This document shows, in pieces, positions 2,723 to 40,879 of a DNA stretch of 59,304 nt. This DNA is from a virus (lineage: Duplodnaviria; Caudoviricetes), in the IMG/VR virus record IMGVR_UViG_3300037264_003947, positions 1 through 59,304 of that record. One strand, 5' to 3'. Every line of letters starts with the position of its first letter. Positions within the stretch are counted from its first letter, which is position 1. A program made the translations under genes and the position numbers. Under the pieces are notes generated by a model. The model made no database searches, was not told the DNA's origin, and was given only the letters and a program-made list of their open reading frames with translations.

Positions 2723-3280
2723 TTATTTGCCTCCTGGTAGAAGGTCTTTTATGTTGTACTCTTCCACTAATTTCATATTTAATTTGTTCCATTTTATTTG
2801 ATTATCTTTTCTTTCTAATGGACGAAGATTTCTTAAATCACAACATTTTTTAAATTCTTTTTCATTGTTTAAATCATACAAAGAAATTGGAATAATGTGA
2901 TCTATAGTCCAAAATTTACCGCAATTGTTCCAACTCATTTTTTCATCAAATTGTTTTTCTAAACATAGTTTGAGATTTTCAAGAGAAAAATTCATGATGC
3001 TACTATTATATCCATTTTTTATCTTTATTCTAGCTCTCATTAATTTTTTTAATTTAAAATTTATGTCTTCTCTATATTGTTTTCTTTCACGTTCTCTTAT
3101 TTTTTCTCTATTGTTTTTATTCCATTTTTTATTTTTTTCATTTTCGTATATTCTATGTTTTTCTTTATTCTTTAATAACCATTTTTTCATGTTTAGTTTA
3201 CATCTATCACAAACTTTTGCTTCAACAGGACTAAAGTCAGACCTTTTATTTTTACAAGTGAAACAGATTTTTACTAACAT
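2723..3280 (-). CDS. HNH homing endonuclease
   Basis: N-terminal CxxC pairs, basic helix, MSWNN..W.IDHIIP..NLRPL..N. Confidence 0.8.
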   Translation of the reverse strand: MLVKICFTCKNKRSDFSPVEAKVCDRCKLNMKKWLLKNKEKHRIYENEKNKKWNKNNREKIRERERKQYREDINFKLKKLMRARIKIKNGYNSSIMNFSLENLKLCLEKQFDEKMSWNNCGKFWTIDHIIPISLYDLNNEKEFKKCCDLRNLRPLERKDNQIKWNKLNMKLVEEYNIKDLLPGGK

Positions 3281-4110: not shown

Positions 4111-4607
4111 TTCTTATTCACTAGTTTATTATACATAGGTGTTGTTAAAATATATCTATCTAGCCAAGACCAATCGTGGGAAGCGTAATCCTTCTTCCTG
4201 TCTTCTTCCTTACTTCTCATTACATATTCTACATTATGCGCTTCTACCATAGTCCATTTTCCATTTACTTTTTTTGCAATGCCGTGGATAAAAATAGCCT
4301 CAGTTTGTTTTACTCCAAGTTTTTTATCTAAATCTTCGTGCATAATCCAAGGACTAAAAACATAAACTTTTTTATTTGCAGTTGCCGTAAATCTTATATA
4401 CTTTTCTTTTTTGGACTTCTGATACTTCATCCAAGCGCCGCCTGGATCGTTTGCTCCACCACCTTCATGTGGCTCAACAATTTCTGCAACTTCATCCATT
4501 TCTGATTCAGTGGGATTGACATAAATTTCTTTATAGTCCCTTCCCATATGTTTTATTCCATCCAGAAATTCTTCGAAGAGTTTATCTATCTTTTTCCTAT
4601 TAGCCAT
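4107..4607 (-). CDS. Hypothetical protein, paralogous to 22996..23655
   Basis: Shared NPT..EMDE, KKV.VF and DW.WLD.YI motifs. Confidence 0.65.
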   Translation of the reverse strand: MANRKKIDKLFEEFLDGIKHMGRDYKEIYVNPTESEMDEVAEIVEPHEGGGANDPGGAWMKYQKSKKEKYIRFTATANKKVYVFSPWIMHEDLDKKLGVKQTEAIFIHGIAKKVNGKWTMVEAHNVEYVMRSKEEDRKKDYASHDWSWLDRYILTTPMYNKLVNKK

Positions 4608-6484
4608 AAATATTCTTCCCTACCAATTCCATATTTTCCCTTGAAAAATAGATCTTCAGAATTTCCTTCTTTTTCATCAGATGAAACAAATTCAAACTTA
4701 TTTTTCTGATCTTCTTCGTTTACAACTTTATCTTTACTCTCTGAGTACTCTATAAATTCACCTTTTTCGTTAATCATAAAGCTTTCACCAGAGTTACTAG
4801 CCTTATGTCTCAAATAGAGTGCAAGTGCAAACGCCATTATAGCATCATCGGTCGAACCAGAGTCGTGAACAGGTTTAGTTCCATCCCAAATCCACGTAGC
4901 CATTTCCATATAGACCCGTTTTGAGTACATTTTGAGTTCCGAAAAGAGTCCATCTACGGTAAACCAGTCAATGAATTCATTTGTCAACAATTTTCTAGTC
5001 TTTGTATCAGTAATCCATCCAGTCATTCGTGTAATATTATTTTTTGTCTTTGCTTGTTTAAATACATTTTGATATGGCTCTGTATCGTGATAATAAACTT
5101 CGTTAAATACAGCTTCACCAATACCATTACATTCTATTACTATGAACGCTTGATTATAATAATTGGCTACTGCTTTCACCATCACACCAAAATTTTTAGT
5201 AGCCATCATTCCTTTATATTCGCAAACTTGTTCATAAGTTTCTACATCTAAAACCTGGAACGAAGAAGTTTCTGCTCCTGTTCCAGAAGCAATATCTACT
5301 CCCATTATATAGCGATGTCCACGCAAAGGATTTCCCCATACCCAAACATTATCCATTCTAACGCTACCAATTCTTCCTTGTGTAATGGGGTCTTTAATTC
5401 TACCTTCAACTTTCTTCAATGTGTCTTCGTTGAATACAGCGTTTCCACCTACTATAAAGTTGTGTAATACTTCTTGTTTATAAAGAATTTCACCTAAGTC
5501 ATCGTGTTGCTTTTTGAGCCAAGGATTTTCTCTCCAGTTATTTTCGCCAATTGGATCAAAAAATTTCTTTGCTTCTCTTTTTACTTCTGGATTATAATAA
5601 TAATCTTTCTCAACGAAACGCTCTAGTATTTGACTATAGCCTTTTTTAGGTCCATCTATTTCTACAGCATCGGGCACTTCCCACCAGTCAACAGAAACTA
5701 ATCTAGTATTATTTTCTGACTCCATTTTTGCTTGCTGGACCTGTTCATAATAATAAGCGCCAGGTCCAGATGTTTTATTTGGAGTTGAGAGAATAATGAA
5801 TTGTCCATTTGTTCTAGAAAGTGTAGGTTGAGCGGCGGCAACAATTCCGCGAACCATTTTTTCTGATTTGTAGTGTGCTGCCTCATCAAGCACTAACAAT
5901 GAAAGAGTATCAGAACGGCCAGCATTTTCTGATTGGCTCTCTGATATGATTTTGCTTCCATTTTCAAACTGAAGCACTTGTTCGTTGTCTTTAACTATTC
6001 TTGTTCTTAAGAAAGGTGGTAAATATTTTATAGTAGAATCCATTTTTGCTACAAAGGCTTGTGCCTTAAGTTGCTTCAATGAAACTACATCTATATCTTC
6101 AGCTTCCCTGAAGTTTAGTTTCCACAAACAATACATAGAAAATAGTGTTGATAGTCCGCACTGACGAACTTTTTCGCATACCATTTTTTGGAATTCTAAT
6201 AAATCTCTTAAAATACTTCTTTGGAAATAATATAGATTAAATGGTATAATGCCTACATTTGGTAAACTTATCCAGGCATAACGATGGATGAAATAATAAG
6301 GAGACATTTTACATAAAAATCTCTCTATTCCAGTATCTATTAGTTCTGTTGTTCCATCACTATATTGTGTTTCAGTAAACACATCATTAGCAGTTTCTAT
6401 TGCGTCATCAAAAGTAGTTTTTATTCTGTAAAATTTTATCTTTTTTTCAATTGACTCTACAAACTTTTTTTCTTCTTGGTTCAT
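4586..6484 (-). CDS. terL: Terminase large subunit
   Basis: KVRQCGLST Walker A variant, LLVLDEAAH Walker B, STPN coupling motif, nuclease MGVDIASG...IECNGIG...DDAIMA. Confidence 0.93.
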   Translation of the reverse strand: MNQEEKKFVESIEKKIKFYRIKTTFDDAIETANDVFTETQYSDGTTELIDTGIERFLCKMSPYYFIHRYAWISLPNVGIIPFNLYYFQRSILRDLLEFQKMVCEKVRQCGLSTLFSMYCLWKLNFREAEDIDVVSLKQLKAQAFVAKMDSTIKYLPPFLRTRIVKDNEQVLQFENGSKIISESQSENAGRSDTLSLLVLDEAAHYKSEKMVRGIVAAAQPTLSRTNGQFIILSTPNKTSGPGAYYYEQVQQAKMESENNTRLVSVDWWEVPDAVEIDGPKKGYSQILERFVEKDYYYNPEVKREAKKFFDPIGENNWRENPWLKKQHDDLGEILYKQEVLHNFIVGGNAVFNEDTLKKVEGRIKDPITQGRIGSVRMDNVWVWGNPLRGHRYIMGVDIASGTGAETSSFQVLDVETYEQVCEYKGMMATKNFGVMVKAVANYYNQAFIVIECNGIGEAVFNEVYYHDTEPYQNVFKQAKTKNNITRMTGWITDTKTRKLLTNEFIDWFTVDGLFSELKMYSKRVYMEMATWIWDGTKPVHDSGSTDDAIMAFALALYLRHKASNSGESFMINEKGEFIEYSESKDKVVNEEDQKNKFEFVSSDEKEGNSEDLFFKGKYGIGREEYLWLIGKR

Positions 6485-6778: not shown

Positions 6779-7199
6779 TCTTTTTTTCTTTTCTTATTGC
6801 GCTTAAATCTATTCCAGCTTTTTTACCTGGCATTGAGTTAAACATAATACCGATATTTGTCTTCATTTCATCGGCCTTAGTTCTTATCTTCAAAAGCTCT
6901 ATCAAGTTTTTACTTGCTTCAATTTTAAGCTCTAGCGCGCGCGTGATAGCTTCTTTTGAAGCTTCAGTTCTGTCTTTATCTAAACCTAGATTGGTGAAGA
7001 AAAGTTCAAAAATTTTATCAGCTTTCTTTCTATCGTCTTGTGTCATTTTAACTAGACCTTCTGCGATAGAATTAATGTCTTCTACATCAAGCTCCAAATC
7101 TTTTCTTTTTTTAGCTAATTCTTTATCATCAATGACGACTGGCATTTTTTCTTTCTCATCCATTTCGTCTAACATTTCGTCTATTAAATCTTTACCCAT
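6771..7199 (-). CDS. Helical hypothetical protein, possible terminase small subunit
   Basis: Size, two-helix pattern and position upstream of TerL; positional inference only. Confidence 0.4.
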   Translation of the reverse strand: MGKDLIDEMLDEMDEKEKMPVVIDDKELAKKRKDLELDVEDINSIAEGLVKMTQDDRKKADKIFELFFTNLGLDKDRTEASKEAITRALELKIEASKNLIELLKIRTKADEMKTNIGIMFNSMPGKKAGIDLSAIRKEKKTR

Positions 7200-7819
7200 T
7201 ATTTCATACCTTCATTTATTTTTCTCAAAACATCTATATCACTTCCATCTTTAGGTCTAGCTCTATTACATTTTCTACATATATATCTTATATTAGATTT
7301 TATGTGAGAGCCACCAATGTTTATTGGAATAATATGGTCTAGATTATATTGGTTTGGTCCTAAAGTTTCTACTAAATTAACCCCACAAATTTTACAATAT
7401 AATGTTGTTTTTTTAAGTTCTCTTAAAAATTTTTTATCAACATCTGTATTAGAATTTTCTATTATTTCTCTTCTTTTATGAGCATTATTAGTATATCTAT
7501 CTATATGTTTTTTATAATCTTGTTTATTTTTTAATTTATATCTTTCTGGAAATTTTTCTCTCCAAGCATTTCTACTTAATTTAATTTTTTCTGGAAATCT
7601 TTTAGCATATTCTTTTTTATATTCTTGCCTTTGCTTATTATATACTTCTTTATGTTTTTCATTACATCTTCGACTAGCTTCTTTCACAGAATTTTTATTT
7701 TTATTTTTCCAAATTATAATGCATAACTTGCACCAATAATGCAAGCCATCTTTATTATATTTATTCTTATAGAAATCTGTCTCATTTTTTTCTTTTTTAC
7801 ACTTAGAACAAATTTTCAT
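7199..7819 (-). CDS. HNH homing endonuclease
   Basis: MKICSKC..FYKN..GL..WCK.C zinc ribbon; CKICG...LDHIIP..GGSH..SNIRYICRKCN; probable ATG at 7819. Confidence 0.88.
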   Translation of the reverse strand: MKICSKCKKEKNETDFYKNKYNKDGLHYWCKLCIIIWKNKNKNSVKEASRRCNEKHKEVYNKQRQEYKKEYAKRFPEKIKLSRNAWREKFPERYKLKNKQDYKKHIDRYTNNAHKRREIIENSNTDVDKKFLRELKKTTLYCKICGVNLVETLGPNQYNLDHIIPINIGGSHIKSNIRYICRKCNRARPKDGSDIDVLRKINEGMK

Positions 7820-7820
7820 T

Positions 7821-8507
7821 TTAGCGAATACCTTCAAATATATCACTATTGTAGCGACTCAAATCATTTACAAATTCTCTTATTTGATTATTCTTCACGC
7901 CTAGAGATCTACCCCAAGCATAAAGGTCAGATTTGCCTACAAACTTCTTCGTTTTTCTAAGATAATCAAGTATAATACTTGCTATCTTAATATACCTTGT
8001 CCTCTTAGTTCCTATAAAATTTTCGTCTATAACACCAAATAAAGTATTTTCCAGCTCGTCAAAAAACAGATCATAATTCATCGTTTCTTTTGCCTCTAAA
8101 TCTAACTCATCATCTATATTCTTGTGATTTCTATGTTTTTGTTTTCGGTCCGTATAGTTAAGCAAGCTTATTTTTGATATAATGCTGTAGTAGTTAAAAG
8201 CAGTGCCTTTACTAGGGTCGAATTTTAAGAAGTTTGAATAGCAAGCACTTAAAGCATGTTGCTTTAAGTCATCATAATCTTCAAAGATATAATAACGATA
8301 GACTATGATGATAGCATTAACTATTTTTTCTACTTGTTTGACGAGATCGTATTCTAACTTTTCGTCCTTAATAACTACTTTGCCATCACGAAATACTAGG
8401 CTATTTTTATAGTCAAGAAGAGTTTTTCTAAATTTCTCTTCGTCAAAGTATTTCCTAGTTGATTTAAGTAATTCTCCAGACTTTTCTACATTTTCTACTT
8501 TTTCCAT
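7821..8507 (-). CDS. Phage late-transcription sigma factor, T4 gp55-like
   Basis: Sigma region-2 pattern DDLKQHALSACYSNFLKFDPSKGTAFNYYSII; located beside packaging genes. Confidence 0.75.
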   Translation of the reverse strand: MEKVENVEKSGELLKSTRKYFDEEKFRKTLLDYKNSLVFRDGKVVIKDEKLEYDLVKQVEKIVNAIIIVYRYYIFEDYDDLKQHALSACYSNFLKFDPSKGTAFNYYSIISKISLLNYTDRKQKHRNHKNIDDELDLEAKETMNYDLFFDELENTLFGVIDENFIGTKRTRYIKIASIILDYLRKTKKFVGKSDLYAWGRSLGVKNNQIREFVNDLSRYNSDIFEGIR

Positions 8508-11755: not shown

Positions 11756-11770
11756 ATATATGATTCGAAC

Positions 11771-11843
11771 TAGGGGTAGAGGGAATCGAACCCCCAATCA
11801 ACAGATTAGAAATCTGATGCCTTATCCGTTAGGCCATACCCCC
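11771..11843 (-). tRNA. tRNA-Arg(TCT)
   Basis: Cloverleaf GGGGGTA/TACCCCT, loop TT-TCT-AA, T-loop TTCGATT; no CCA. Confidence 0.9.
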
Positions 11844-11849
11844 AAATTG

Positions 11850-12059
11850 TTATTCCTTCATTTGAAGGATTAATGCCTCATAAACCATGCGTGGAGTTAG
11901 AACAAAAGCATCAATTCCTTCTGGATGATTTGGCCCTACGGTACAATCCCTTTTAAATGGACCATAATAAACAGTGGCATTTTTTCCCTGCTTATTTAGT
12001 TCATTAACCTTATCATAGATTTCTGTAAGGGTTCCAATAAAAGTAAATCGCTTTTCCAT
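11850..12059 (-). CDS. Hypothetical protein between tRNAs
   Basis: MEKRFTF... start after an AAGGAAG SD; the ORF-track start overlaps a tRNA. Confidence 0.55.
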   Translation of the reverse strand: MEKRFTFIGTLTEIYDKVNELNKQGKNATVYYGPFKRDCTVGPNHPEGIDAFVLTPRMVYEALILQMKE

Positions 12060-12071
12060 ATTAACTTCCTT

Positions 12072-12143
12072 TTGGGGCAGATGGATTCGAACCACCGCGT
12101 GCAAGCTTCAGAGACTCGCGCCTTACCACTTGGCCATGCCCCA
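12072..12143 (-). tRNA. tRNA-Gln(CTG)
   Basis: TGGGGCA/TGCCCCA acceptor, loop CT-CTG-AA, TTCGAAT. Confidence 0.9.
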
Positions 12144-12148
12144 TAGCA

Positions 12149-12221
12149 TTGTCCCGGAACGGTTCGAACGTTCGACCTTGAGCTTCAAAGACTCCAACTC
12201 TACCAGCTGAGCTACGGGACA
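12149..12221 (-). tRNA. tRNA-Gln(TTG)
   Basis: TGTCCCG/CGGGACA acceptor, loop CT-TTG-AA, TTCGAAC. Confidence 0.88.
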
Positions 12222-12242
12222 CAATTATATCTTCACAAATAT

Positions 12243-12271
12243 ATTATAACGGATTTATTATTTTTCGTCAA
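12243..12271 (-). promoter_or_regulatory. Sigma70-type promoter for the tRNA-Gln pair
   Basis: TTGACG-17 bp-TATAAT. Confidence 0.75.
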
Positions 12272-12450
12272 TCGCTTGCAAGATCTTTTGGTTTTCTTGC
12301 TGTAGCGTGACAGGAATCACACTCTGCCTGTGGAGTTAGCTTACCATGAGCAAATCTGGAGACAACTTTTACGATTCCACCACAACGACAAAGATTAGTC
12401 TTTGTCTTTACGTTATGGCCTACTTTTGCCTGACCCTTTGGGACGTTCAT
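12268..12450 (-). CDS. Small zinc-ribbon protein
   Basis: CRCGG...CDSC. Confidence 0.5.
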   Translation of the reverse strand: MNVPKGQAKVGHNVKTKTNLCRCGGIVKVVSRFAHGKLTPQAECDSCHATARKPKDLASD

Positions 12451-12588
12451 TTACAATCACTTCCTTCCTAACTGGTTTCTTTACTAAACGATACTTAATC
12501 AAAATATACATTAATCCAAGTGTCTCAATGATAGAAATAATACACAGCGCTATAAAAGCAACTGTAAAAATACCATCTAAATTTTGCA

Positions 12589-12759
12589 TTACTTTTTACT
12601 AGGAAGACAGGCCACTACGATTAGGCCAATAATGCCCAAGAAAAATCCCCAGCAAAAACCACCACCTGGACTTCTTCCCTTCTCCTTACTAATATATCTA
12701 GTAATAAGACCAAGACCAACCCAAACCGCTAGCGAAATAACCCAAACCAATGGCTCCAT
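12589..12759 (-). CDS. Small two-TM membrane protein (below the ORF-track cutoff)
   Basis: MEPLVWVISLAVWVGLGLITRYISKEKGRSPGGGFCWGFFLGIIGLIVVACLPSKK with AGGAG SD. Confidence 0.65.
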   Translation of the reverse strand: MEPLVWVISLAVWVGLGLITRYISKEKGRSPGGGFCWGFFLGIIGLIVVACLPSKK

Positions 12760-12894
12760 TTTAAACTCCTATCTCTTTGGCTTTTCGTAAGCTTTTGAAT
12801 TTACTTTTGGACGCCTTAGAACAGCTCCAACGCCAATTATAATAATTACCAATGCAATTGAAAAACCTATTAAACCATTCATTTTACTTACCTC

Positions 12895-12966
12895 TGAGGC
12901 CACCAGGGTTCGAACCTGGGCATGGAAGATTAAAAGTCTCCTGGCTTACCACTTGCCTATGACCCC
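12895..12966 (-). tRNA. tRNA-Lys(TTT)
   Basis: GGGGTCA/TGGCCTC, loop CT-TTT-AA, TTCGAAC. Confidence 0.88.
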
Positions 12967-13103
12967 AATTTCATGACGACCCGTAAAGAACGACACTTAG
13001 GACAAAAGTATTCTATCCATTTCAAGCCTTCGCTCTTTTTGATCATTTCACGATTGCACTTGTCATTAGGGCAATTCATAAGCTCCTCCTTTTTAAAAGA
13101 ATT

Positions 13104-13430
13104 TTAACCTCTATGAGAATCTATATCTACCGTAAAGCGCATGTTAGGATCAGCACTCTCGCCAGTTAGAATAGCAATTACGTCAACGTCTCTAATGAGA
13201 ACGTATTCCTTCTTGCCTTCCTTACGGCGAATCATTGCTCCATAAGCATTAACAGCAACCTTCATTCCAGACTTTAGGTCTCTATCTTTTACATAGGGAC
13301 CAACAGAAACTATAGTTCCCTCAAACTGCTTTTCAGGCATAATCTTTGGGGGGATAATAATTCCATTAATCATCTTCTCTTCGTTTCCCTCTTGCTCTAT
13401 CACCAAATAATTCTGTAACGGAATAATCAT
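13104..13430 (-). CDS. groES: Co-chaperonin GroES/Cpn10-like
   Basis: IPLQNYLVI...GIIIP...EGTIVSVGP...LKSG..V...YVLIRDVDVIAIL. Confidence 0.85.
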   Translation of the reverse strand: MIIPLQNYLVIEQEGNEEKMINGIIIPPKIMPEKQFEGTIVSVGPYVKDRDLKSGMKVAVNAYGAMIRRKEGKKEYVLIRDVDVIAILTGESADPNMRFTVDIDSHRG

Positions 13431-13451
13431 AAATGCTCCTTTTAAATTATA

Positions 13452-13523
13452 TACGGGATGTAAGATTTGAACTTACGACTTTTACGGTGTAAACGTAACA
13501 CTCTACCGCTGAGTTAATCCCGC
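13452..13523 (-). tRNA. tRNA-Val(TAC)
   Basis: GCGGGAT/ATCCCGT, loop TT-TAC-AC, TTCAAAT. Confidence 0.9.
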
Positions 13524-13724
13524 ATTAAACAACTATCGTATTCAAAAAATCTTCTAATGTCCAAGCATAACGATGTATGTATGTATAATGATTCTTGTAT
13601 TCTGTTGGTTTCTGTTTTGTTTCGAGCCCTATTCTTAATTCTCCTGCTATTTTTTTACCGTAAGTAAAAAATCTTTTAGTAAATAGACCGTGTATAAGCA
13701 ATACTTTGTTTGTCATAAAAATAT

Positions 13725-13797
13725 TGGGAGTATCTGGATTTGATCCAGTTTTCATGGTTTATAAGACCAATGAGAACACCGTCCTCAACCTACTCCC
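13725..13797 (-). tRNA. Atypical tRNA-Ile(TAT)
   Basis: GGGAGTA/TACTCCC acceptor, loop CT-TAT-AA, non-canonical T-loop ATCAAAT. Confidence 0.65.
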
Positions 13798-14210
13798 TTG
13801 TTTGTTCTACCCCTAAATCTATAATTCTTATCAATTGCCGAATGACAATTTGGGCAAACAATTAAAAGATTTTCTCTTTTATTATTTTTATTGTCATCAT
13901 CTATATGATGAATTTCTAACCAAATTTGTTTTCCCAACCATTCATTGTTCTTACAAACTTCACAAGAATTTTTAGCTTCTTCAAGTAAAACCTTTCTCCT
14001 AAATTTAGGACTTAGTTTCTCATATAATCCTAGTTCTAAATAACTTTCATTGTTTACCCTGTGTCTCTCTACAGTTTTTTCCGTAGATTTTTTTCTATCT
14101 TCTTCTGTGAAGACATGTCCTCCACGATAAACGTGAGTTCTTCCCTTTAAGGATTCTCTTATCTTATTTTTAGTCTCTTCTGTATGTTTAAAACCAATTT
14201 CTCTAGACAT
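13785..14210 (-). CDS. HNH endonuclease with NUMOD3-like motif
   Basis: GFKHTEETKNKIRESLKG; CEVC..W....LEIHHID...NKRENL..CPNCH; probable ATG at 14210. Confidence 0.87.
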   Translation of the reverse strand: MSREIGFKHTEETKNKIRESLKGRTHVYRGGHVFTEEDRKKSTEKTVERHRVNNESYLELGLYEKLSPKFRRKVLLEEAKNSCEVCKNNEWLGKQIWLEIHHIDDDNKNNKRENLLIVCPNCHSAIDKNYRFRGRTNKGVG

Positions 14211-14224
14211 TAACCTTATATTAC

Positions 14225-14253
14225 ATTTTACAATATATATCAATTTCTGTCAA
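14225..14253 (-). promoter_or_regulatory. Sigma70-type promoter
   Basis: TTGACA-17 bp-TAAAAT. Confidence 0.75.
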
Positions 14254-14264
14254 TTTATTTTACG

Positions 14265-14339
14265 CCAGAGTAGCGGGGTTCGAACCCACAAGTCGTCGCG
14301 TTCGTAGCGCGAAATTTTATCCATTTAAACTATACTCTG
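14265..14339 (-). tRNA. tRNA-Arg(ACG)
   Basis: CAGAGTA/TACTCTG, TCGCG-CT-ACG-AA-CGCGA, TTCGAAC. Confidence 0.9.
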
Positions 14340-16847: not shown

Positions 16848-18440
16848 CTAGAGATTTCCATTTGCGATCATCTGGATAAATCGTGGAGTCTCAGAGGAGA
16901 AACCAGCGATATCGTAGGACTTGTTATCCTTTGGATCGCTCAAAGAACTTCTATCGGAATAAGGAGTAAGAACAACGTAGATGATTTTCGCATCAGCGTT
17001 AATCGTGTCCCTATACTTCTTCATCAAGGTAACAGGTTGCTTGCCCTGCCAGTTCTGTCCATCAGTCCAAATCACAAGGTTATCAGCCTTGAGCTTGTTG
17101 TCGATGGCAAACTGAATTGCACTTTCAACGTCAGTTCCAGCAGGAGTCATTGGCATGAAGCCACGGCTCAAAGCTTCCTTGAAAGAGGTCGTCTTTCGAA
17201 GCTTTGGAAAATCGCTCGTTGTGGTCGTAAAGGCAGAAGTAAAGTAATACTTCTCTGCCTTGATCGTAGCAAGAGCCATGATCGTAGCGACCTCGGAAGG
17301 TGTCATCCACATCGTCTCCAAAGGAGCAGTCTGCATAGAGCCAGAAACGTCGATTGAATGATAGAATACCTTGTTGGTTGGCTCAAGAGCAGTGAAAGCC
17401 TCTTCAACCGCCTTCTCAAGAATATCCTCGACAACTGGATGAGCAACCCAAGTCAACTGAGAACGACCAAGAGTTCCACTAGCAGAGTAAATCTTGTAGG
17501 CAGAAACGATGTTGATAGGGTGAACCCTACCCTTCACCAATCTCTCTTTCGTGAACTTCTCTTCAAGAACCTTGAGGTTCTCAATGTTGGTGAAAATACC
17601 CTTGTTAGTCAAATTGGCCAAGTTACGCAAAGTAGCCGTAATAGGCATCTTGGTGAAAAGAGCTTCCCAAATACCCTTGGTTCGTGCTACGTTTGCTGGA
17701 ATCATTTCCTGAGTCAAACCGAAATCAAGGATTGCCTTGATGACATCTGCCTCTTTCATATTTCCAGTCTTGAGAGACTCATAAATCCCGATGAGAGGAA
17801 GAGTCTCAATAGAAGCCTTCTTATCAGCCATCCAAGCAAACAGATTGCTTTCGGATGCATCCCGTGGAACTGGCTTGATCTTCCGAAGAACATCACGACC
17901 AGCCCAATTGTATCTGCTCTGATACTTGAGGAACTGATACTCAAGGCCCTTTACATCATGAGACGTAATCCACTTCTCGACTGCGGAATGAATAAGTCTA
18001 CCAAAGCCACGAAGGCCCTTGGTATACTCAAGGAACTCATAAAGGTGAGAAGCGGTTCTCACAATCTTATTGAAGATCTGTGAGAAATAAACCTTTGCAT
18101 CAATACCTCCCATAGAGAGATAAACAAGAGCAAGCAAAGGCGTGTGGTTATTGATTCCATGATCACTTGCGTAAACGATTTCGTCCGCAACGACCTTTGG
18201 ATCTTTTGCAACCATGCAGGAAAGAATCTTGACGTTTTCAGTCGTCAACTCTTCCTTACCCTGATAGAAAAGGTTATTCTCAGAGCCAGTCAAGAGCCAG
18301 CGTCTAAGAGCCGTGAGGTCATCGGCCACGAAAGCCTTACCCCCAGCCATGTTCTCAGTCATTTCAGCCTCTCGGCCAGGAATAACCTGAGTAGCAAGAA
18401 CATCCTTCTTCTTTGTGTGGAACGTGTAGCCAGACTTCAT
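16848..18440 (-). CDS. rsr: Ro60-related RNA-binding protein (TROVE + vWA)
   Basis: N.AGG.AF, LRRWLLTGS, KYQSRYNW..RDVLR, MPITATLRNL, RVHPI, vWA DVSGSM and TD MIDAS residues, DIAGFS. Confidence 0.93.
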   Translation of the reverse strand: MKSGYTFHTKKKDVLATQVIPGREAEMTENMAGGKAFVADDLTALRRWLLTGSENNLFYQGKEELTTENVKILSCMVAKDPKVVADEIVYASDHGINNHTPLLALVYLSMGGIDAKVYFSQIFNKIVRTASHLYEFLEYTKGLRGFGRLIHSAVEKWITSHDVKGLEYQFLKYQSRYNWAGRDVLRKIKPVPRDASESNLFAWMADKKASIETLPLIGIYESLKTGNMKEADVIKAILDFGLTQEMIPANVARTKGIWEALFTKMPITATLRNLANLTNKGIFTNIENLKVLEEKFTKERLVKGRVHPINIVSAYKIYSASGTLGRSQLTWVAHPVVEDILEKAVEEAFTALEPTNKVFYHSIDVSGSMQTAPLETMWMTPSEVATIMALATIKAEKYYFTSAFTTTTSDFPKLRKTTSFKEALSRGFMPMTPAGTDVESAIQFAIDNKLKADNLVIWTDGQNWQGKQPVTLMKKYRDTINADAKIIYVVLTPYSDRSSLSDPKDNKSYDIAGFSSETPRFIQMIANGNL

Positions 18441-18841: not shown

Positions 18842-18912
18842 AGCGACCAACGGGAGTCGGACCCGTTTGTAAACCTTGGCAAGGTTTCATAATACCGTTA
18901 TATCATGGTCGC
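18842..18912 (-). tRNA. tRNA-Gly(GCC) inside the Y RNA array
   Basis: GCGACCA/TGGTCGC, AAACC-TT-GCC-AA-GGTTT, variant T-loop TCCGACT, U73. Confidence 0.82.
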
Positions 18913-18918
18913 AAAAAA

Positions 18919-19038
18919 AGGGCAAGACTTGTATTTGGCAAAACAACCACTATAGGGAAAGTGGGCGAAGGATTCGAGCCTTCTATAAATTTTGGTTAGA
19001 AAATTTAATTATCCAGGTAACCAAATATCTTCAGCCCT
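18919..19038 (-). ncRNA. Y RNA-like element 4 with T-arm
   Basis: AGGGCTGA...GGTTACC...GAAGG-CTCGAAT-CCTTC...CTTGCCCT. Confidence 0.68.
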
Positions 19039-19051
19039 ATTATTTTCAAAG

Positions 19052-19157
19052 AAAAAGAACAAGGTTTAATAAGAAGTATGCCCCCACTGGGCTTCCCCCA
19101 CGAAGCGGGGGAAAGAAGATTCGAACTTTTGATAACTTCTCATTATCAGTTCTTTTT
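19052..19157 (-). ncRNA. YrlA-like Y RNA 3 (tRNA mimic)
   Basis: AGAACTGA...AGTTATC, T-loop GTTCGAATC, closed acceptor-like stem TTCCCCC..GGGGGAA, D-arm GCCC-AGTGG-GGGC, CTTGTTCT. Confidence 0.8.
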
Positions 19158-19169
19158 TAATTTCAAAAT

Positions 19170-19302
19170 GGTGAACAAGTATTTAGAAAAGGATGTTTTA
19201 GTGCTCTATCCACTAAGCTACCAGCCCACGAAATGGGCTGAGTGAGAATCGAACTCACGACCACTCAATTGTATTTGATAACCCTTCTCAAGTCAACTCA
19301 CC
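19170..19302 (-). ncRNA. YrlA-like Y RNA 2 (tRNA mimic)
   Basis: GGTGAGTTGA...GGTTATC, T-arm GTGAG-TTCGATT-CTCAC, closed stem CAGCCCA..TGGGCTG, D-arm TAGCTTAGTGGATAGAGC, CTTGTTCACC. Confidence 0.88.
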
Positions 19303-19317
19303 TTAATTATCAAAGAA

Positions 19318-19401
19318 AAGGAACAAGTATTTGAAAGACGATATTGCCCGAAGGCAGTTAATTTGCTGATAATTATGATAACGCCTCTCTGTCAGTTCCT
19401 T
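19318..19401 (-). ncRNA. Y RNA-like element 1
   Basis: AAGGAACTGA...CGTTATC...TGCC-TTCG-GGCA...CTTGTTCCTT, starting just after the promoter. Confidence 0.72.
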
Positions 19402-19409
19402 ATAAAACT

Positions 19410-19438
19410 ATCTTATCACTTCGATCGAATTCTGTCAA
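19410..19438 (-). promoter_or_regulatory. Sigma70-type promoter for the Y RNA array
   Basis: TTGACA-17 bp-TAAGAT, 8 nt before element 1. Confidence 0.8.
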
Positions 19439-19440
19439 GT

Positions 19441-20283
19441 CTACAAAGACAAAAACCACATTGGGTCTACCGTCTTTTCTCCAAAGTGAATTTCGTAATG
19501 AAGATGACAACCAGTCACTTCTCCACTAGAGCCCATAAGACCTACCACATCACCTTGCTTTACGACTTGACCTGATTTTGCTTTTATCTCGCTAAGGTGA
19601 GCGTACCAAGTCTCAAATCCTAACTCATGCTTAACTATAACTACCATACCATAAGTAGGATTTTCATATTCTACATAGGCCACAGTTCCATTCGCCGTTG
19701 CCTGTATTTCATCACCGAGCTTACCAACTAAATCAATTCCAGGATGGAACCTTAACTTGTCTTTATCTGCTACGAATAATCCCTCCCTAAATCCATACGC
19801 AGAAGATAATTTAACGGTTCCACTAGTTTTTACAGGATAGATGAAAGGTGACTCTTTAAAGTACCTATTAAAAATAACTACTCTATCCTTCAGTCCATAC
19901 AAAGAATCTAACAATTCTTTGTAAGAGTTGTATGCTTGCGTAGCATACTTAACGGTCATTTCGTCTGACCCATTAATTGCTGGTTCTAAGGAAGTTCCAC
20001 CTACAGGCATATTGGTGAAGAACATCAAATCAGCAATTTGTTTTACTACTGTCCTATAGCTCTCTTGTGTTTTGTAAGTATCGAAAACAATCTTTTTCCA
20101 CTTATCATTTTCTTCTTTTAATTGTGCATTCTCAACTTTTAATACTTCAATTTCGGCATTAACACTTGCTTGTGATACTGTTTTTCTAAACCCGAAAAAG
20201 AGGCCCAAGGCTATAATAGGAATCAACAAAAAAATAGCGAAATTCTTATTCAGCCTAAAGCCACGCTTAGGTTTCTTCTTCAT
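19441..20283 (-). CDS. M23 family peptidoglycan endopeptidase, membrane-anchored
   Basis: TM, coiled coil, HPGIDL, YAHL, TGCHLHYEI. Confidence 0.92.
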   Translation of the reverse strand: MKKKPKRGFRLNKNFAIFLLIPIIALGLFFGFRKTVSQASVNAEIEVLKVENAQLKEENDKWKKIVFDTYKTQESYRTVVKQIADLMFFTNMPVGGTSLEPAINGSDEMTVKYATQAYNSYKELLDSLYGLKDRVVIFNRYFKESPFIYPVKTSGTVKLSSAYGFREGLFVADKDKLRFHPGIDLVGKLGDEIQATANGTVAYVEYENPTYGMVVIVKHELGFETWYAHLSEIKAKSGQVVKQGDVVGLMGSSGEVTGCHLHYEIHFGEKTVDPMWFLSL

Positions 20284-20329
20284 TCACACTCCTTCCACTA
20301 TTAAAGAGCTAAAGATATATAGTTAAATT

Positions 20330-20403
20330 TGGACCAGACGGGAATTGAACCCGTGTCTCCAGTGTATCCGCTTGGGATCTGGATCGACTTCAAGCACTGG
20401 CCC
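20330..20403 (-). ncRNA. Stand-alone tmRNA-type tRNA-like domain (Ala identity)
   Basis: GGGCCAG/CTGGTCC-A with G3:U70, no D-stem, TCGA..GAC junction, ACGGG-TTCAATT-CCCGT T-arm. Confidence 0.75.
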
Positions 20404-20420
20404 CATTGCTTGTTAAAAAA

Positions 20421-20518
20421 TGCCGTTTTTTTGATACTACCTAGAATAGAGAGGAACGGCAAAACTCAGTTCTAGGAGCAGACCGCAGTTAAGCGGCGAA
20501 AGCTGTTTTGGCTTCTTG
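20421..20518 (-). ncRNA. tmRNA-like mRNA module (tag frame plus pseudoknot) upstream of the tRNA-like domain
   Basis: GAA GCC AAA ACA GCT TTC GCC GCT TAA = EAKTAFAA*; CCGC/GCGG hairpin over the stop; H-type pseudoknot. Confidence 0.6.
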
Positions 20519-20524
20519 TATTAT

Positions 20525-20553
20525 ACTTTACCAGAAGCGTTAATTCGTGTCAA
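20525..20553 (-). promoter_or_regulatory. Sigma70-type promoter for the tmRNA-like locus
   Basis: TTGACA-17 bp-TAAAGT with extended -10 TG. Confidence 0.7.
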
Positions 20554-20559
20554 GTAAAA

Positions 20560-21303
20560 CTATGCCTTAAGGGCTGGAAGTGCTGCTTTTTTACGCAAAG
20601 CATTAATTTTTTCATTATTTTTATCTGCGTAAGTCTTTAAAGCCACTTCTTCTTCGGAGGACATCTTTCTCTTTCTTACTCTATTCATAAGTTTTTTAGC
20701 CGCTACTACTCCACCAGTTATTAATAGAGCAGGAAGCATTACTTTAGCCCAAGGAGTTTTGCTGAACCAAGCTAGACCTTGCTGTGCTAGTCCCTTTGCC
20801 CAAGCAAAACCTTGCTTTAGGAAAGGAACTATAGGACCAAAGATTGCCCGACCCAATGACTTCAATTTTTCCCAAGCTCCAGTAATTATGTTGCCCATTT
20901 TAAATTGCCCAGCCATTGAAGATCTAGCTGCCATATTAGCTGGAGAATCTGCTTTAGTCCACCATAATCTATCTAGTCCTTTGGTGAACTTTACATCTGG
21001 ATAAGGGAATTTTTCTACAAGAAGATTATTAATTTCTTTTTCTGCATAACCTTCAAAAAGAAGAGGTGATTTAAGCTCGGAAAATTCCTGTAGTGTTTCA
21101 ATATCTTGGTTTACAAGAAATTCATAAAGTTCTTTTCCAGCTTCACCATATACTTCTGTATAACCTTCTACTACGGCCTTGTTTCCAAAAGCTTTTATTT
21201 CATTAGGGAGATTTTTTATAATATTGCTAAGTATATAATTCTCCCAGAACCAGTCGCCCTTATATCTAAAGGCTTCCTTTAGCAATTCTTCTCTGATTTC
21301 CAT
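20560..21303 (-). CDS. Hypothetical protein with amphipathic/TM segment, possible ejected head protein
   Basis: 247 aa; N-terminus MEIREELLKEA; internal LxE sites. Confidence 0.6.
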   Translation of the reverse strand: MEIREELLKEAFRYKGDWFWENYILSNIIKNLPNEIKAFGNKAVVEGYTEVYGEAGKELYEFLVNQDIETLQEFSELKSPLLFEGYAEKEINNLLVEKFPYPDVKFTKGLDRLWWTKADSPANMAARSSMAGQFKMGNIITGAWEKLKSLGRAIFGPIVPFLKQGFAWAKGLAQQGLAWFSKTPWAKVMLPALLITGGVVAAKKLMNRVRKRKMSSEEEVALKTYADKNNEKINALRKKAALPALKA

Positions 21304-23731: not shown

Positions 23732-24289
23732 ATGCGAAAGTGTTCTAAGTGCAAGACAATGAAAGATGACTCAAATTTCTATAAAAATAAAGCTATGAAA
23801 GAAGGGCTTTCTCATTATTGTAAAGAGTGTGATAATGAGAGAGGAAAAAAATATATAAATAAAGAAGCTCAAAAAAAGAGATCAAAAAGATGGTATGAAA
23901 ATAATAGAAGTCTAACAATAGAGAGAGCAATTAAGTGGGAAAAAGAAAATAAGGAGAAACATTACTTATTTACTAAAAATTATAAAAGAAAAAATCCAGA
24001 AATTTATACCTTAAACAAAAATAAAAGAAGAGCCAAGCAAAAAGAAACTGATATAACTATGGCTTATTTAAAACAATTAAAAGAAGAAACTGAAAATTGC
24101 CCTCTTTGTGGAGCAAAATTAAATAATATAAATTATCACCCAAATCAATATCACCTTGACCATATCATTCCTATAGGTATAAATGGTAAACATATGAAAA
24201 ACAATGTTAGATATATTTGTGGAAAATGTAATTTGGCTAGGCCAAGAAATGGAAGTGATTTAGTGGAGGCCCAACTTGGACTACTTTGA
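23732..24289 (+). CDS. HNH homing endonuclease, paralog of 7199..7819
   Basis: MRKCSKC..FYKN..GL..YCKEC; CPLCG...LDHIIP..GKH..NNVRYICGKCN. Confidence 0.88.
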   Translation: MRKCSKCKTMKDDSNFYKNKAMKEGLSHYCKECDNERGKKYINKEAQKKRSKRWYENNRSLTIERAIKWEKENKEKHYLFTKNYKRKNPEIYTLNKNKRRAKQKETDITMAYLKQLKEETENCPLCGAKLNNINYHPNQYHLDHIIPIGINGKHMKNNVRYICGKCNLARPRNGSDLVEAQLGLL

Positions 24290-35798: not shown

Positions 35799-37154
35799 AT
35801 GCATCAATTTATCTCAACAGAAGTGCCGCAAGCGTCGGTTTGTAATTTAGATTGCGTTTATTGTTATATACCCAAAAATAAACAACTAACAAAAATACAT
35901 AAAAAATGGGCAGAAAAAATTAGAGATGGCACTCACAATGAAGTAATGTCAGAATATTTTAATGGCAACTTACAGGCAATTAGTTTCTGGGGTGGCGAAC
36001 CAACCCTAGGCATGAACGATTTACAAAGAATAGATGACTTACTTGATTTCAACAAAAATTTAACTAACCTTTCTACTTCTACAAATTTTGCTAGAATAGA
36101 AAATTTAGAATTTTTAATAAAAAAATTAGATGATTACCAAAAAAGAACTGGGAGAAATCTTCATTTGGGTATACAGGTTTCTTTAGATGGAACCAAAGAA
36201 AACACTGAAAAAAATAGGGGAAAAGGAACTTACGATAAAGTAGTAAGTAATTTGCTAAGACTAAAAGAATTCTCTAAAGAGATAAATTTTTTGAAAGTTA
36301 GAATTCACATAAAGGCTACCAATACAGCAGAAGATTACGAAGGGTTTGCCAAAAATCCTCAAACTTTAAAAGATTTCCTAGATTCATTTAACTATATAAA
36401 TAACCTAATTTTATCCACACCTTTTCCAGAAAACTGGGATGTGTCTTTAAAAACTCTACCTACTTTATCGTTGCCAGGAGATTATACTAAAGAAGATGGA
36501 GAAAATTTTTATAAGTATCATGTAGAGCTTAAAAAATTATTAGATACTGACTATAAGAATTATGTCCAAGAAGATGACTATATATTTAGATTCAGAACAC
36601 TGTGGGCAACTCAATATGAATTGAATAGAAATAATTTCATATTTCAATGCTCGGCAGGAAATTGCCAATTACCCATAGATCCAGAAGCAATGGTTCATAT
36701 GTGTCATGGAAGTTTCTGGTTCAACCAAGAAAATTATTTAGAAGAAACAGAAAATTCGGCAGCTGGATGGTGTGAGGGTGAAAGAATAGTAGATTTTGAT
36801 GCCGATAAATTCTGGAATGTAACTAAATCCACTATGGTAGAATATAGAGATAAGTATAATTTTGCTAGATCCAAATATACACTACGATGTTTTAATGACA
36901 TGATAGATCATTATTTAGCAATTACTTACTCAACCATTTTAATGCTAGCCAAAGCGGGACAGATTAGTGAAATTTACAAAGATGATGATTGGGCTAAAAT
37001 GTTTGCTTATTTTTTGGTATTAAAATCTGGTTGCTGGATGAATGGTTTATTAACAACTGGATCAATTTTTGTAATGCCTTTAAGCATATATAGAATATAT
37101 GGAAATGGGACTTTTGAATTTATAGTTAGAGATTTTGCAAGTAAAATACTATGA
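35799..37154 (+). CDS. Radical SAM enzyme with partial SPASM/twitch region
   Basis: CNLDCVYC, FWGGEP, QVSLDG, CSAG...MCH. Confidence 0.9.
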   Translation: MHQFISTEVPQASVCNLDCVYCYIPKNKQLTKIHKKWAEKIRDGTHNEVMSEYFNGNLQAISFWGGEPTLGMNDLQRIDDLLDFNKNLTNLSTSTNFARIENLEFLIKKLDDYQKRTGRNLHLGIQVSLDGTKENTEKNRGKGTYDKVVSNLLRLKEFSKEINFLKVRIHIKATNTAEDYEGFAKNPQTLKDFLDSFNYINNLILSTPFPENWDVSLKTLPTLSLPGDYTKEDGENFYKYHVELKKLLDTDYKNYVQEDDYIFRFRTLWATQYELNRNNFIFQCSAGNCQLPIDPEAMVHMCHGSFWFNQENYLEETENSAAGWCEGERIVDFDADKFWNVTKSTMVEYRDKYNFARSKYTLRCFNDMIDHYLAITYSTILMLAKAGQISEIYKDDDWAKMFAYFLVLKSGCWMNGLLTTGSIFVMPLSIYRIYGNGTFEFIVRDFASKIL

Positions 37155-37357
37155 ACATAAAAGAAAAATTAATTGAAGACTGTAAAAATCTTATTATATT
37201 AAATAAACATCTAATGAATTTAATAGAGAATGAGTTAAGATTTAAGCCAGAGGTCGTTGATGCTCTTATAGAATTTTCAGATATTAGCAAAGAAGAAATG
37301 CCAAAACATACACTTCATAGCTTCTGGAAAGAAAGAATTACAAAACAAAAGATATGA
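37151..37357 (+). CDS. Small hypothetical protein between the rSAM genes
   Basis: 68 aa, ATGA-coupled on both sides. Confidence 0.6.
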   Translation: MNIKEKLIEDCKNLIILNKHLMNLIENELRFKPEVVDALIEFSDISKEEMPKHTLHSFWKERITKQKI

Positions 37358-38685
37358 AAAAAGAATATATAGATCAAAATAGAGAGTTATTTAAAAACTT
37401 TCTAGAGGCAACTTTTTTTAAAAATTGGAGAGAGTCAAGTAGAGATAAAATTGCAATAGAAAATTATCAATCTGTAGAAATGTCTATAGGTTATAAATGC
37501 GATCTTCACTGCAAGTATTGTTATTATAGCAGATATGGTAAAGAACTCTATCAAAACAAACCAGTCAAGGCAAACGACATATTAAAAAATACTGAAAAGT
37601 TAATGAACTTTTTCGTTAAAAATAATATGTGTGTAAAAATAGAACTTTTTTCTGGAGATCCTTTTAATCTTCCTTATGTTTGGGATTATTTTGATATTAT
37701 TCTAAAGTATTCAGAGATGATGCCAATTGAAAAAAGGCCAGGGTATCTTTCTATACCTACAAATCTTTCTTTTTTACGATCAGAAGATGATACAAAATTA
37801 AATAAGATAAAAGATTATATATTAAAATTTGAGAAAATAGATGTTCCGTTTTATTTATCTGGTTCTGTTGATGGTCCTTTCATGGATAAGTTTAATAGAC
37901 CTTCGATAAAACAATTTAATTATGAAAAAAATTTTTATGATAAAGTATTAAAGTATGGGAAAGAGATTCGTTATGGTTATCATCCAATGATATACTCTAA
38001 CAATATAGAAAACTGGATAGAAAACTTTCTCTGGTTTTATTATTTAACAGAAAACCTATATTTACTAGAAGTAAGAAATGCTGAATGGACCGAAGAACAA
38101 TGTGTTCAAATTTATTATTTAATGAAGTTTATAATTCATTTTCTCTATAATGCAAAAGATAAAGATATTAAAAAAATGAACGAAATTTTGCAAGCAAATA
38201 AAGGATACAATATTTTGATGAGTCCTTTTATGAGAACTGGGAGAGGTTTGGGTTGCTCAATGCAAAGTACTTTAAATTTTCAAATGAATGACCTAACTAT
38301 TGTTCCTTGCCATAGAACTTCTTATAATGAATTCGTCGCTGGTAGCATGATCCTAAATGATGATGGATCTTATGATTTTAATCCAAAAAATGTGGAATAT
38401 TATTTAGCAGAACAATCAACTCAAATAAATAGGACTTATCCATGTGTTTCTTGCTCTGTCAATGAAATGTGTAGTGGTGGATGTTTGGGTTCAAATTATG
38501 AATCAACGGGAGATCCTTTCGTTCATCATCCAAATATGTGCAGAATGGAACATTATAAAATAGCGGGAATAATACATGGGTTTGATGAAATTGGTTTATT
38601 GGACGAATTTATGCGTGGCCAGACTGAAAGAAAAAAATCACAAGTTCAATATGTTTTAAAGACTTTTGGAGAAAAAAATGGATAA
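37354..38685 (+). CDS. Radical SAM/SPASM peptide-maturase-like enzyme
   Basis: CDLHCKYC, FSGDP, SVDGP, SPASM GC...PCHR...CVSCSVNEMCSGGCLG...C. Confidence 0.92.
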   Translation: MKKEYIDQNRELFKNFLEATFFKNWRESSRDKIAIENYQSVEMSIGYKCDLHCKYCYYSRYGKELYQNKPVKANDILKNTEKLMNFFVKNNMCVKIELFSGDPFNLPYVWDYFDIILKYSEMMPIEKRPGYLSIPTNLSFLRSEDDTKLNKIKDYILKFEKIDVPFYLSGSVDGPFMDKFNRPSIKQFNYEKNFYDKVLKYGKEIRYGYHPMIYSNNIENWIENFLWFYYLTENLYLLEVRNAEWTEEQCVQIYYLMKFIIHFLYNAKDKDIKKMNEILQANKGYNILMSPFMRTGRGLGCSMQSTLNFQMNDLTIVPCHRTSYNEFVAGSMILNDDGSYDFNPKNVEYYLAEQSTQINRTYPCVSCSVNEMCSGGCLGSNYESTGDPFVHHPNMCRMEHYKIAGIIHGFDEIGLLDEFMRGQTERKKSQVQYVLKTFGEKNG

Positions 38686-40056: not shown

Positions 40057-40879
40057 CGGACCAGTAAATAAATACTACGAACAATTATTAAATAATGGAA
40101 TCATTAAAGAAAGCGATAATGTTTTAGTAGATCCGCGTAACGAAAAGGAATTTCCTGATATTAACGATTTAGTTATCTTACAACAAGGAGATCTTTCTTG
40201 GAATGTAAAAAATTTTTCAAAAATAAAGTATATATTTACTCCATCTCTTTATCTATATGAAAAATATAGTTATAGTAAAAAAATATTTTTAATACCTTTT
40301 GCAATTGAGCCTGAATATAAAAAAATAAGTAAATGGTCTGATAGAGAAAACGCCCTTTATTATCACGGAAGAATAATTTCTGAAAAATTAGGAATAATTG
40401 GCTTAACGAAATTATGTTCAGAAGGAATAAAAATAGTTCTACGAGGACCAATTTGTAAAGAATACTGGACCGATAAAGATATTGAGCGTCCAGAATTTAT
40501 TTCCTATAAAGAAAAAGTCTCTAAACTCAATATAGAATTTTTACCACCCACAGATGATAAAGAAGTAATAATAAACGATCTTAACAAATACAAATTTTAT
40601 TTCACTCTATCTAATGGGGAATGCTTTAATCTCGCTCTACAAGAAGCAATAGCTTGCGGAACCATACCTTTAGTAAAACCTAATTTTGCGTATTGGTGGG
40701 CAGAACACTTAATACTACAATTTGAAAATACCAATGAACTAATTAAAAAATTCAATGGTCTAAAAGATATGGACATGGACGAATATTCTAGTCTACTTTC
40801 AAAAGAATTGCATAAAAGATTTAATTATGAATCTTTAATTAAATCGTATGAGTATCAGAAAAAAGAATTATTTCCTTAA
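40037..40879 (+). CDS. Glycosyltransferase, GT4-like
   Basis: YHGRIISEK and S..ECFNLALQEAIACG (E-x7-E). Confidence 0.8.
   Translation: MKLNQCNGPVNKYYEQLLNNGIIKESDNVLVDPRNEKEFPDINDLVILQQGDLSWNVKNFSKIKYIFTPSLYLYEKYSYSKKIFLIPFAIEPEYKKISKWSDRENALYYHGRIISEKLGIIGLTKLCSEGIKIVLRGPICKEYWTDKDIERPEFISYKEKVSKLNIEFLPPTDDKEVIINDLNKYKFYFTLSNGECFNLALQEAIACGTIPLVKPNFAYWWAEHLILQFENTNELIKKFNGLKDMDMDEYSSLLSKELHKRFNYESLIKSYEYQKKELFP

Follow-up and report, generated by a model that had tools for sequence, protein, structure and literature searches.

A conserved phage element that may represent a tag-first tmRNA gene with a closed tRNA-like domain

The 59,304-base IMG/VR virus record IMGVR_UViG_3300037264_003947 (hereafter the window) carries, on its minus strand at 20330-20553, an element with the parts of a transfer-messenger RNA (tmRNA) gene: a promoter, a short start-less tag frame, a hairpin holding the stop codon and a pseudoknot, followed by a complete and closed tRNA-like domain. 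The window has a CheckV completeness of ∼29% and is a fragment of a large phage. Comparison with related metagenome loci confirmed the arrangement and gave it strong comparative backing, and a new tmRNA topology is the best reading of it, as yet unproven. We tentatively favour a 'tag-first' tmRNA gene that would act in two pieces, a template RNA and a tRNA-like domain lacking a coding sequence (CDS), probably cut apart by ribonuclease P (RNase P).

Every part named in the original prediction was found where it had been placed. The -35 and -10 elements together agree with the consensus at 10 of 12 positions and look like an early-type sigma-70 promoter. The features are listed in the order of the minus strand, on which all of them lie, with lengths in nucleotides (nt) or base pairs (bp).

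20548-20553, minus strand: -35 element TTGACA
20525-20530, minus strand: -10 element TAAAGT with TG before it, at a 17-nt spacer from the -35
20513-20524, minus strand: 12-nt stretch separating the -10 from the resume codon, with A at -4 (AAGAA-GCC) and the predicted transcription start
20489-20512, minus strand: tag frame GCC AAA ACA GCT TTC GCC GCT TAA, encoding AKTAFAA and a stop
20482-20497, minus strand: hairpin P5, GCCGC/TTAACT/GCGGT, with TAA within the 6-nt loop
20477-20481, minus strand: junction CTGCT, whose GCT forms a conserved GCTCCT with the first CCT of stem S1
20421-20476, minus strand: H-type pseudoknot with crossing 7-bp stems S1 and S2
20476-20470 with 20446-20440, minus strand: S1, CCTAGAA with TTCTAGG
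20461-20455 with 20427-20421, minus strand: S2, TGCCGTT with AACGGCA
20469-20462, 20454-20447 and 20439-20428, minus strand: pseudoknot loops L1, L2 and L3
20415-20420, minus strand: U6 tract immediately after S2
20404-20414, minus strand: 11-nt linker AACAAGCAATG up to G1 of the domain, with a predicted RNase P site between 20404 and 20403
20330-20403, minus strand: closed tmRNA-type tRNA-like domain, 74 nt
20403-20397 with 20337-20331, minus strand: acceptor stem GGGCCAG/CTGGTCC with G3:U70; A73 is at 20330
20396-20384, minus strand: D region, 13 nt, stem-less, ending in TCGA
20383-20358, minus strand: closed arm TCCAG-ATCC-CAAGC-GGAT-ACA-CTGGA
20357-20355, minus strand: GAC
20354-20338, minus strand: T arm ACGGG-TTCAATT-CCCGT

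As had been proposed, this order matches neither the standard nor the permuted tmRNA gene: the template lies 5′ of G1, and 26 nt stand between UCGA and GAC. The minimum free energy (MFE) fold of 75 nt reproduces the described domain structure exactly (-28.7 kcal/mol, z -2.64), and the nested MFE of the leader has a z of -1.93.

Homologous loci were reached through the protein encoded by the adjoining upstream gene (20560-21303), which has 247 amino acids and no Pfam or PHROG family. It has 12 homologs at 47-97% identity, whose alignment led to six metagenome loci; in five of them (L013, L014, L015, L016 and L017) the element follows the gene. These five and the window make up the six elements compared below. 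The flanking protein is only 45-58% identical among the related contigs that carry the element, and the spacers outside the element cannot be aligned between them. Contig ends cut off L016 within its pseudoknot, L017 within its tRNA-like domain (in the arm) and L014 just past P5. In L014, a GIY-YIG/NUMOD3 homing endonuclease gene (4778-5407, plus strand) stands between the 247-amino-acid gene and the element, with one TTGACA promoter ahead of the endonuclease gene and a second ahead of the element.

Promoter and tag frame are conserved throughout. All six elements have TTGACA, a 17-nt spacer and either TAAAGT (4/6) or TAAGAT (2/6), and the frame begins 12, 12, 11, 11, 9 and 8 nt past the -10; by usual promoter geometry, the RNA should therefore begin a few nucleotides before the resume codon. 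Each frame has seven codons and a stop (AKTAFAA, ANLAFAA, ANLALAA, ANLSLAA, GNLALAA and ATTALAA), and in none of the six is there an in-frame ATG, GTG or TTG after the promoter. The frames open with an Ala-type resume codon (GCC in five, GGC in L016) and close with an Ala-rich, hydrophobic C terminus, giving the consensus A-[NKT]-[LT]-[AS]-[FL]-A-A-stop, with GNLALAA starting with G. The changes are synonymous and conservative: Leu is written CTC, TTA or TTG, and the final Ala GCT, GCG or GCA. The stop (TAA in five elements, TGA in one) always falls inside the loop of the GC-rich P5, which in L014 is a compensated GCUGC/GCAGC that preserves the Ala codon too, and the GCTCCT that follows P5 is conserved. 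At -4, four of the six elements have A (xAGAA-GCC); the main frame-setting nucleotide of Escherichia coli tmRNA, A86, is likewise at -4 in the available text of PMC2481249. A start-less frame with protein-type conservation amid RNA-type covariation has the look of a tmRNA template region. The upstream frame and pseudoknot, whose loss in homologs the original prediction had held to be decisive against itself, are thus both conserved.

As MAFFT alignments placed the pseudoknot and domain stems of L015 and L017 out of register, pairs were counted by script on stems located in each sequence. The pseudoknot is readable in three distinct sequences, with S1 as CCUAGAA/UUCUAGG, CCUAACU/AGUUAGG or CCUGGCC/GGCUGGG and S2 as UGCCGUU/AACGGCA, GCCACCUUU/AAAGGUGGC or GCCGUCUU/AAGACGGC. 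Compensatory changes on both sides of the pair were found at 1/5 positions of P5, 3/7 of S1 and 3/6 of S2, and, within the domain, at 3/7 positions of the acceptor, 2/5 of the T stem, 3/4 of the outer arm and 4/4 of the inner arm. In total, 19 of 38 helix positions are compensated, with one non-standard pair overall (the closing pair of P5 in L016). The U6 tract is also present in L013, L015 and L017. The alanine identity pair G3:U70 is present in the window, L013 and L015, L017 being cut before the 3′ strand, and A73 is found in the window and L013. Because the same parts recur with compensatory changes while the flanking protein is so diverged, the architecture goes beyond chance. In the nested MFE folds, AGAAGCC at the 5′ end is paired with GGC(A)UUUUUU, and all three sequences are identical there; such an AGAAGCC:GGC-U6 helix would be in competition with S2 and would mask the resume codon.

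Covariance models place the 74-nt unit with tmRNAs. At permissive thresholds, RF00023 (Rfam tmRNA) aligned end to end (model positions 1-374) over 20329-20403, with 29.4 bits and a local E of 3.9e-10. In this alignment 324 inner model positions are replaced by 26 nt, and the acceptor, both junctions (UCGA and GAC) and the T arm are covered. RF00005 (Rfam tRNA) scored 29.4 bits at the element, against a gathering score of 29 and 51-69 bits for six real phage tRNAs, and clan competition retained the tmRNA model over the tRNA model. The permuted tmRNA model, RF04321, matched the T arm only (11.4 bits). ARAGORN had to be set to a 70% threshold before it made a call, a forced Gly(ccc), and it made no call in L015. 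The domain has neither a D stem nor an anticodon arm or loop, as an ordinary tRNA would. Scores, clan outcome and missing parts, together with the folds and the compensatory changes between the window and L015, bear out the proposal that the unit is a tmRNA-type tRNA-like domain and no ordinary tRNA.

Could the arrangement be fortuitous, an ordinary or decayed tRNA standing behind an intergenic region with a chance short frame and stems? The RF00005 score just reaches its gathering score, and in the window alone the pseudoknot is only modestly unusual: of 5000 dinucleotide-shuffled versions of the 115-nt leader, 95 held two crossing 7-bp Watson-Crick stems. However, the comparative data contradict a chance origin: the architecture is conserved and half of its helix positions are compensated, while the neighbouring spacers do not align. 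We regard it as very improbable.

Under the two-piece tag-first reading, the RNA would start a few nucleotides ahead of the resume codon GCC, and an RNase P cut at G1 would give a ∼110-nt template RNA and a ∼74-nt domain. The 3′ end of the domain would be trimmed and CCA then added; as CCA is encoded neither in any of the seven tRNA genes of the window nor in the domain, its 3′ maturation resembles that of the phage tRNAs. Alanyl-tRNA synthetase would charge the domain via G3:U70, and host SmpB and EF-Tu would accompany the charged domain into stalled ribosomes. The frame would then come from the template RNA, through its free 5′ end, and rescued proteins would end in ...A-A(N/K/T)(L/T)A(F/L)AA. 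For delivery, the free 5′ end might thread into the emptied mRNA channel, SmpB might touch the A-rich nucleotides before GCC, or loop 1 of the pseudoknot might contact the T loop. Such trans-translation, with a separate, near-leaderless template RNA loaded by its free 5′ end after rescue by the Ala-charged domain, is a possibility that we put forward with some doubt.

The two parts might also work as one uncut chain, with the pseudoknot and the U-rich linker forming a covalent bridge between the template and the 5′ end of the acceptor stem. Co-transcription from one promoter would then supply both a 1:1 stoichiometry and a tether, and the order of template, P5, pseudoknot and tRNA-like domain mirrors the 3′ half of standard tmRNA. 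However, RNase P normally cleaves a substrate of this kind, a 12-bp acceptor/T-arm stack preceded by a U-rich, single-stranded leader. Moreover, a 5′ extension at G1 should impede EF-Tu binding and accommodation in the peptidyl-transferase centre, and the linker of L015 leaves 9 nt only (U6 plus 3). A working uncut chain therefore seems improbable to us.

Alternatively, the structured upstream part could itself be the functional product, a small RNA, and the domain would serve chiefly as a handle by which RNase P forms the 3′ end of that RNA, or would mark where the 5′ leader of the downstream M23 peptidase mRNA is processed. A terminator scan of 19300-20700, made with loops of 3-8 nt only, found no terminator-like site, including between the domain and the peptidase start at 20283, so that transcription may continue into the M23 peptidase gene (19441-20283). 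The cleaved 5′ piece would finish in a stem and a U-rich tail, and 3′ ends of upstream RNAs are made by RNase P at MALAT1/mascRNA. The most distant locus, L018 (35% protein identity), also retains a promoter, a short RNA and a hairpin: at 2938-3130 (plus strand) a plain hairpin and U7 are followed by GGGGGATG...TTCGA (a GGGGG...TTCGA remnant), with neither a T arm nor a 3′ acceptor strand. L018 may be a decayed copy or something different. On the other hand, any tRNA-like fold would suffice as a handle, yet G3:U70, the stem-less D region and UCGA...GAC are kept, and the coding-type conservation of the frame goes unexplained. We give the small RNA explanation little credence.

We enumerated inter-piece duplexes of ≥5 bp for the window, L015 and L017. 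Two pairings proposed earlier, AAGCGG:CCGCTT (AAGCGG being in the arm) and CAAGCA:TGCTTG (CAAGCA being in the leader), exist in the window but are absent from L015 and L017. At the corresponding position, the arms of L015 and L017 lack a sequence complementary to the tag end, and their linkers, 3-4 nt only (3-11 nt across the elements), lack CAAGCA. Complementarities of 6 bp between the pieces are at chance level, about two perfect 6-mers being expected for these sizes. In both independent full-length copies, loop 1 of the pseudoknot is complementary to the T loop on its 3′ side, in the same register (window, GAGUU:AAUUC; L015, AUUUCGC:GCGAAAU). This loop 1:T-loop contact might hold the pieces together, a lead from two sequences.

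With no tether between the pieces found, the CDS-less domain alone might matter, either as an inhibitor that titrates SmpB/EF-Tu or as a tag-less rescuer, and the upstream 110 nt would be a mere leader serving expression, stability or attenuation. tmRNA genes consisting of the tRNA-like domain only do exist, as in mycobacteriophage DS6A (NC_023744 28478-28560, 83 nt, 43.2 bits), which shares with our element a closed, short tmRNA-type domain. In the accessible part of PMC11915505, database counts include 79 phage sequences, nine 'Standard, no CDS' and 72 'Permuted, no CDS' sequences, and CDS-less forms are also given for Mallomonadaceae plastids and mitochondria. A molecule similar to the DS6A type is described as strongly inhibiting tmRNA, perhaps by SmpB titration (in the part of PMC4131195 consulted). 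The closed domain alone is therefore not new, as CDS-less domains of the DS6A type are already known from these two sources, and we found a further domain-only match of 78 nt in the huge phage LR756511 (L039, 28 bits). However, protein genes and no such leader lie directly upstream of both: the DS6A domain (L028/L029) begins 10 nt past the gp33 stop and has neither the tag frame nor the pseudoknot of our element, and L039 directly follows a protein gene. Whether our element belongs to the CDS-less DS6A type hinges on whether its conserved upstream frame is assigned to the gene. A leader role would also leave unexplained a start-less A-[FL]-A-A-stop frame that is kept with synonymous codon replacement and with its stop in a hairpin loop. 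We consider it unlikely that the domain acts alone, though this deserves more weight than the uncut chain or the small RNA. The DS6A domain is unannotated in its record, and DS6A encodes an RtcB-type ligase (gp76).

Several observations weigh against the tag-first reading. Its weak point is the delivery of an unlinked template without the usual acceptor-stem and P2 links; no conserved base pairing between the pieces was found across the window, L015 and L017, and to our knowledge an untethered template has no precedent. S2 with U6 resembles a terminator with an oversized loop and could end transcription ahead of the tRNA-like domain, although the scan for loops of 3-8 nt detected no terminator. 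The independent full-length copies number two only (window/L013 and L015), and in the L015 domain, which RF00023 does not report at E ≤ 0.01, the T loop (AGCGAAA) is non-canonical and position 73 is U. The -4 nucleotide is G in L014 and C in L016. L018 keeps the promoter, but its frame reads ANKLTVNNTV-stop. The 29.4 bits of the full-length RF00023 match lie below the gathering score of 47, and ARAGORN finds no tmRNA at the element even with lowered thresholds, and by default no tRNA either. Finally, neither SmpB nor PolyA_pol/CCA-adding enzyme nor RtcB was found in the 59 kilobases, which at 29% completeness is uninformative.

The genes of the window include the following.

754-2721: portal
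4586-6484: large terminase
11770-14339 and 18842-18912 (minus strand): seven tRNA genes called by ARAGORN (Arg-tct, Gln-ctg, Gln-ttg, Lys-ttt, Val-tac, Arg-acg and Gly-gcc)
16848-18440, minus strand: Ro60 homolog with TROVE and vWA domains
19441-20283: M23 peptidase gene, downstream of the element, with its start at 20283
43219-45207: ribonucleotide reductase

The DNA runs that contain the stretch are sediment and freshwater metagenomes, and no RNA run was among the 10 runs listed. For the terminase, the closest cultured relatives reach ∼30% identity only (Microcystis phage Mel-JY01, Flavobacterium phage immuto and two huge uncultured phages). An eighth, weak Rfam tRNA match at 13725-13797 (30.9 bits) is not called by ARAGORN and overlaps the end of an HNH/NUMOD3 open reading frame (ORF) at 13785-14243. 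This ORF (minus strand) is one of three dispersed HNH endonuclease ORFs, the others being at 7199-7846 and 23732-24289 (plus strand). A low-GC stretch (0.285) with two adjacent radical SAM-like proteins and a class-V aminotransferase (35799-38685, plus strand; 40839-42116, minus strand) may be a modification or metabolic module.

As the Ro60 gene lies 2 kilobases away, a Y-RNA role for the element was considered. Y RNAs with tRNA-like modules beside Ro60 are reported from >250 bacteria and phages (PMC4201824, in the part available). The YrlA model RF02553 had no match in 20200-20700 at E ≤ 10; it matched 19180-19281 (minus strand) with 33.7 bits and an E of 2.8e-5, below its gathering score of 69. 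This YrlA-like site is flanked by the M23 peptidase gene and tRNA-Gly; a TTGACA-17-TAAGAT promoter (19438-19410, minus strand) stands upstream of it and Ro60 downstream, and syntenic YrlA matches were found in L013 (42 bits) and L015 (35 bits). We therefore rejected the element as the Y RNA, as RF02553 misses it and the YrlA-like RNA lies elsewhere; with this match and its syntenic counterparts, the partner of Ro60 is separately accounted for. The element adds to the translation-maintenance genes known from large phages, which here include seven tRNAs, Ro60 and the YrlA-like RNA. The non-coding kilobase around the YrlA-like site holds further tRNA-like pieces (18913-19227, minus strand): RF00005 matches 19106-19227 weakly, across a 62-nt insert, and GAAGG-CTCGAAT-CCTTC near 18980 resembles a T arm. 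A T7 run stands immediately 5′ of G1 of tRNA-Gly, similar to the U6 ahead of the tRNA-like domain.

Searches for further copies outside these loci returned little. A nucleotide search of 19800-21200 against cultured phages gave no match, and the exact sequence of the domain's 3′ half did not occur in the viral contig collection. A degenerate domain pattern returned nine loci, all of them ordinary tRNAs or normal tmRNA 3′ ends, a P5 pattern gave nine chance matches in GC-rich coding DNA, and a pattern of promoter plus frame had no match in genome contigs or viral contigs. In viral contigs, neither flanking gene gave a match when its protein was searched singly, and an alignment-based search found nothing in viral or genome contigs. 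Four DNA runs yielded near-identical contigs only, with an L013-type tag variant as a loose end, and an 812-nt contig from the DNA runs, which could not be read further, carries a more diverged tRNA-like domain. As both ARAGORN and the Rfam gathering score miss this element family, similar phage genes are probably under-counted.

Phage tmRNAs in general are known (PMC9004378, in the part seen), and three forms of tmRNA gene, standard, intron-bearing and permuted, are named in the excerpted text of PMC11915505. We found no literature description of a template-first tmRNA gene, although the supplementary lists of PMC11915505 might include relatives. In both the standard and the permuted form, helices link template and tRNA-like domain. 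A conserved family with the template before a closed domain would be a fourth tmRNA gene form. It would raise the questions of whether a template must be topologically embedded, and what sets the frame in an RNA that begins a few nucleotides ahead of the resume codon. A tag may then exist for some 'CDS-less' tmRNAs after all, and if the tag-first reading is true, separate templates could have been overlooked for the CDS-less tmRNAs of other phages and organelles.

The element shares with standard tmRNA (RF00023) G3:U70, the stem-less D region, UCGA...GAC and the T arm, as well as a start-less GCC frame that ends in A-[FL]-A-A, has its stop in the P5 loop and is followed by a pseudoknot. In standard tmRNA, however, template and pseudoknots lie within the long arm, whereas in the element they are 5′ of the acceptor stem and the arm is closed by 26 nt. 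Standard tmRNA typically has four pseudoknots (PMC11915505, in the part available), in contrast to one in the element and none upstream of the template, and the template of the element would stand, unlike that of standard tmRNA, at the extreme 5′ end of the predicted transcript. Permuted tmRNA (RF04321), known from Alphaproteobacteria, some Betaproteobacteria, Cyanobacteria and phages such as Melnitz, is like the element in that one precursor gives a template piece and an acceptor piece through tRNA-processing enzymes, as we predict here. Permuted genes start with the acceptor piece, the 5′ acceptor strand is part of the coding piece, and acceptor stem and P2 hold the two pieces together (PMC11915505, same excerpt). 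In contrast, the element has the reverse order, a self-contained tRNA-like domain and no conserved inter-piece helix.

The two huge phages nearest by terminase (LR756508 and LR756511) have full-length tmRNAs of 72 and 122 bits. Short matches to the full RF00023 model were also found there: L037 with 112 nt (58 bits), L038 with 137 nt (50.4 bits) and the domain-only L039. L038, in LR756511, has the same acceptor as the window, GGGCCAG/CTGGTCC, the same A73 and an A-rich run followed by GCC AAC T...; unlike the element, its tiny frame GCC AAC TGA and pseudoknot-like stems lie inside the arm, as in the standard topology. Large phages thus commonly carry small derivatives of tmRNA, and the template-first order was seen only in the clade of the element described here.

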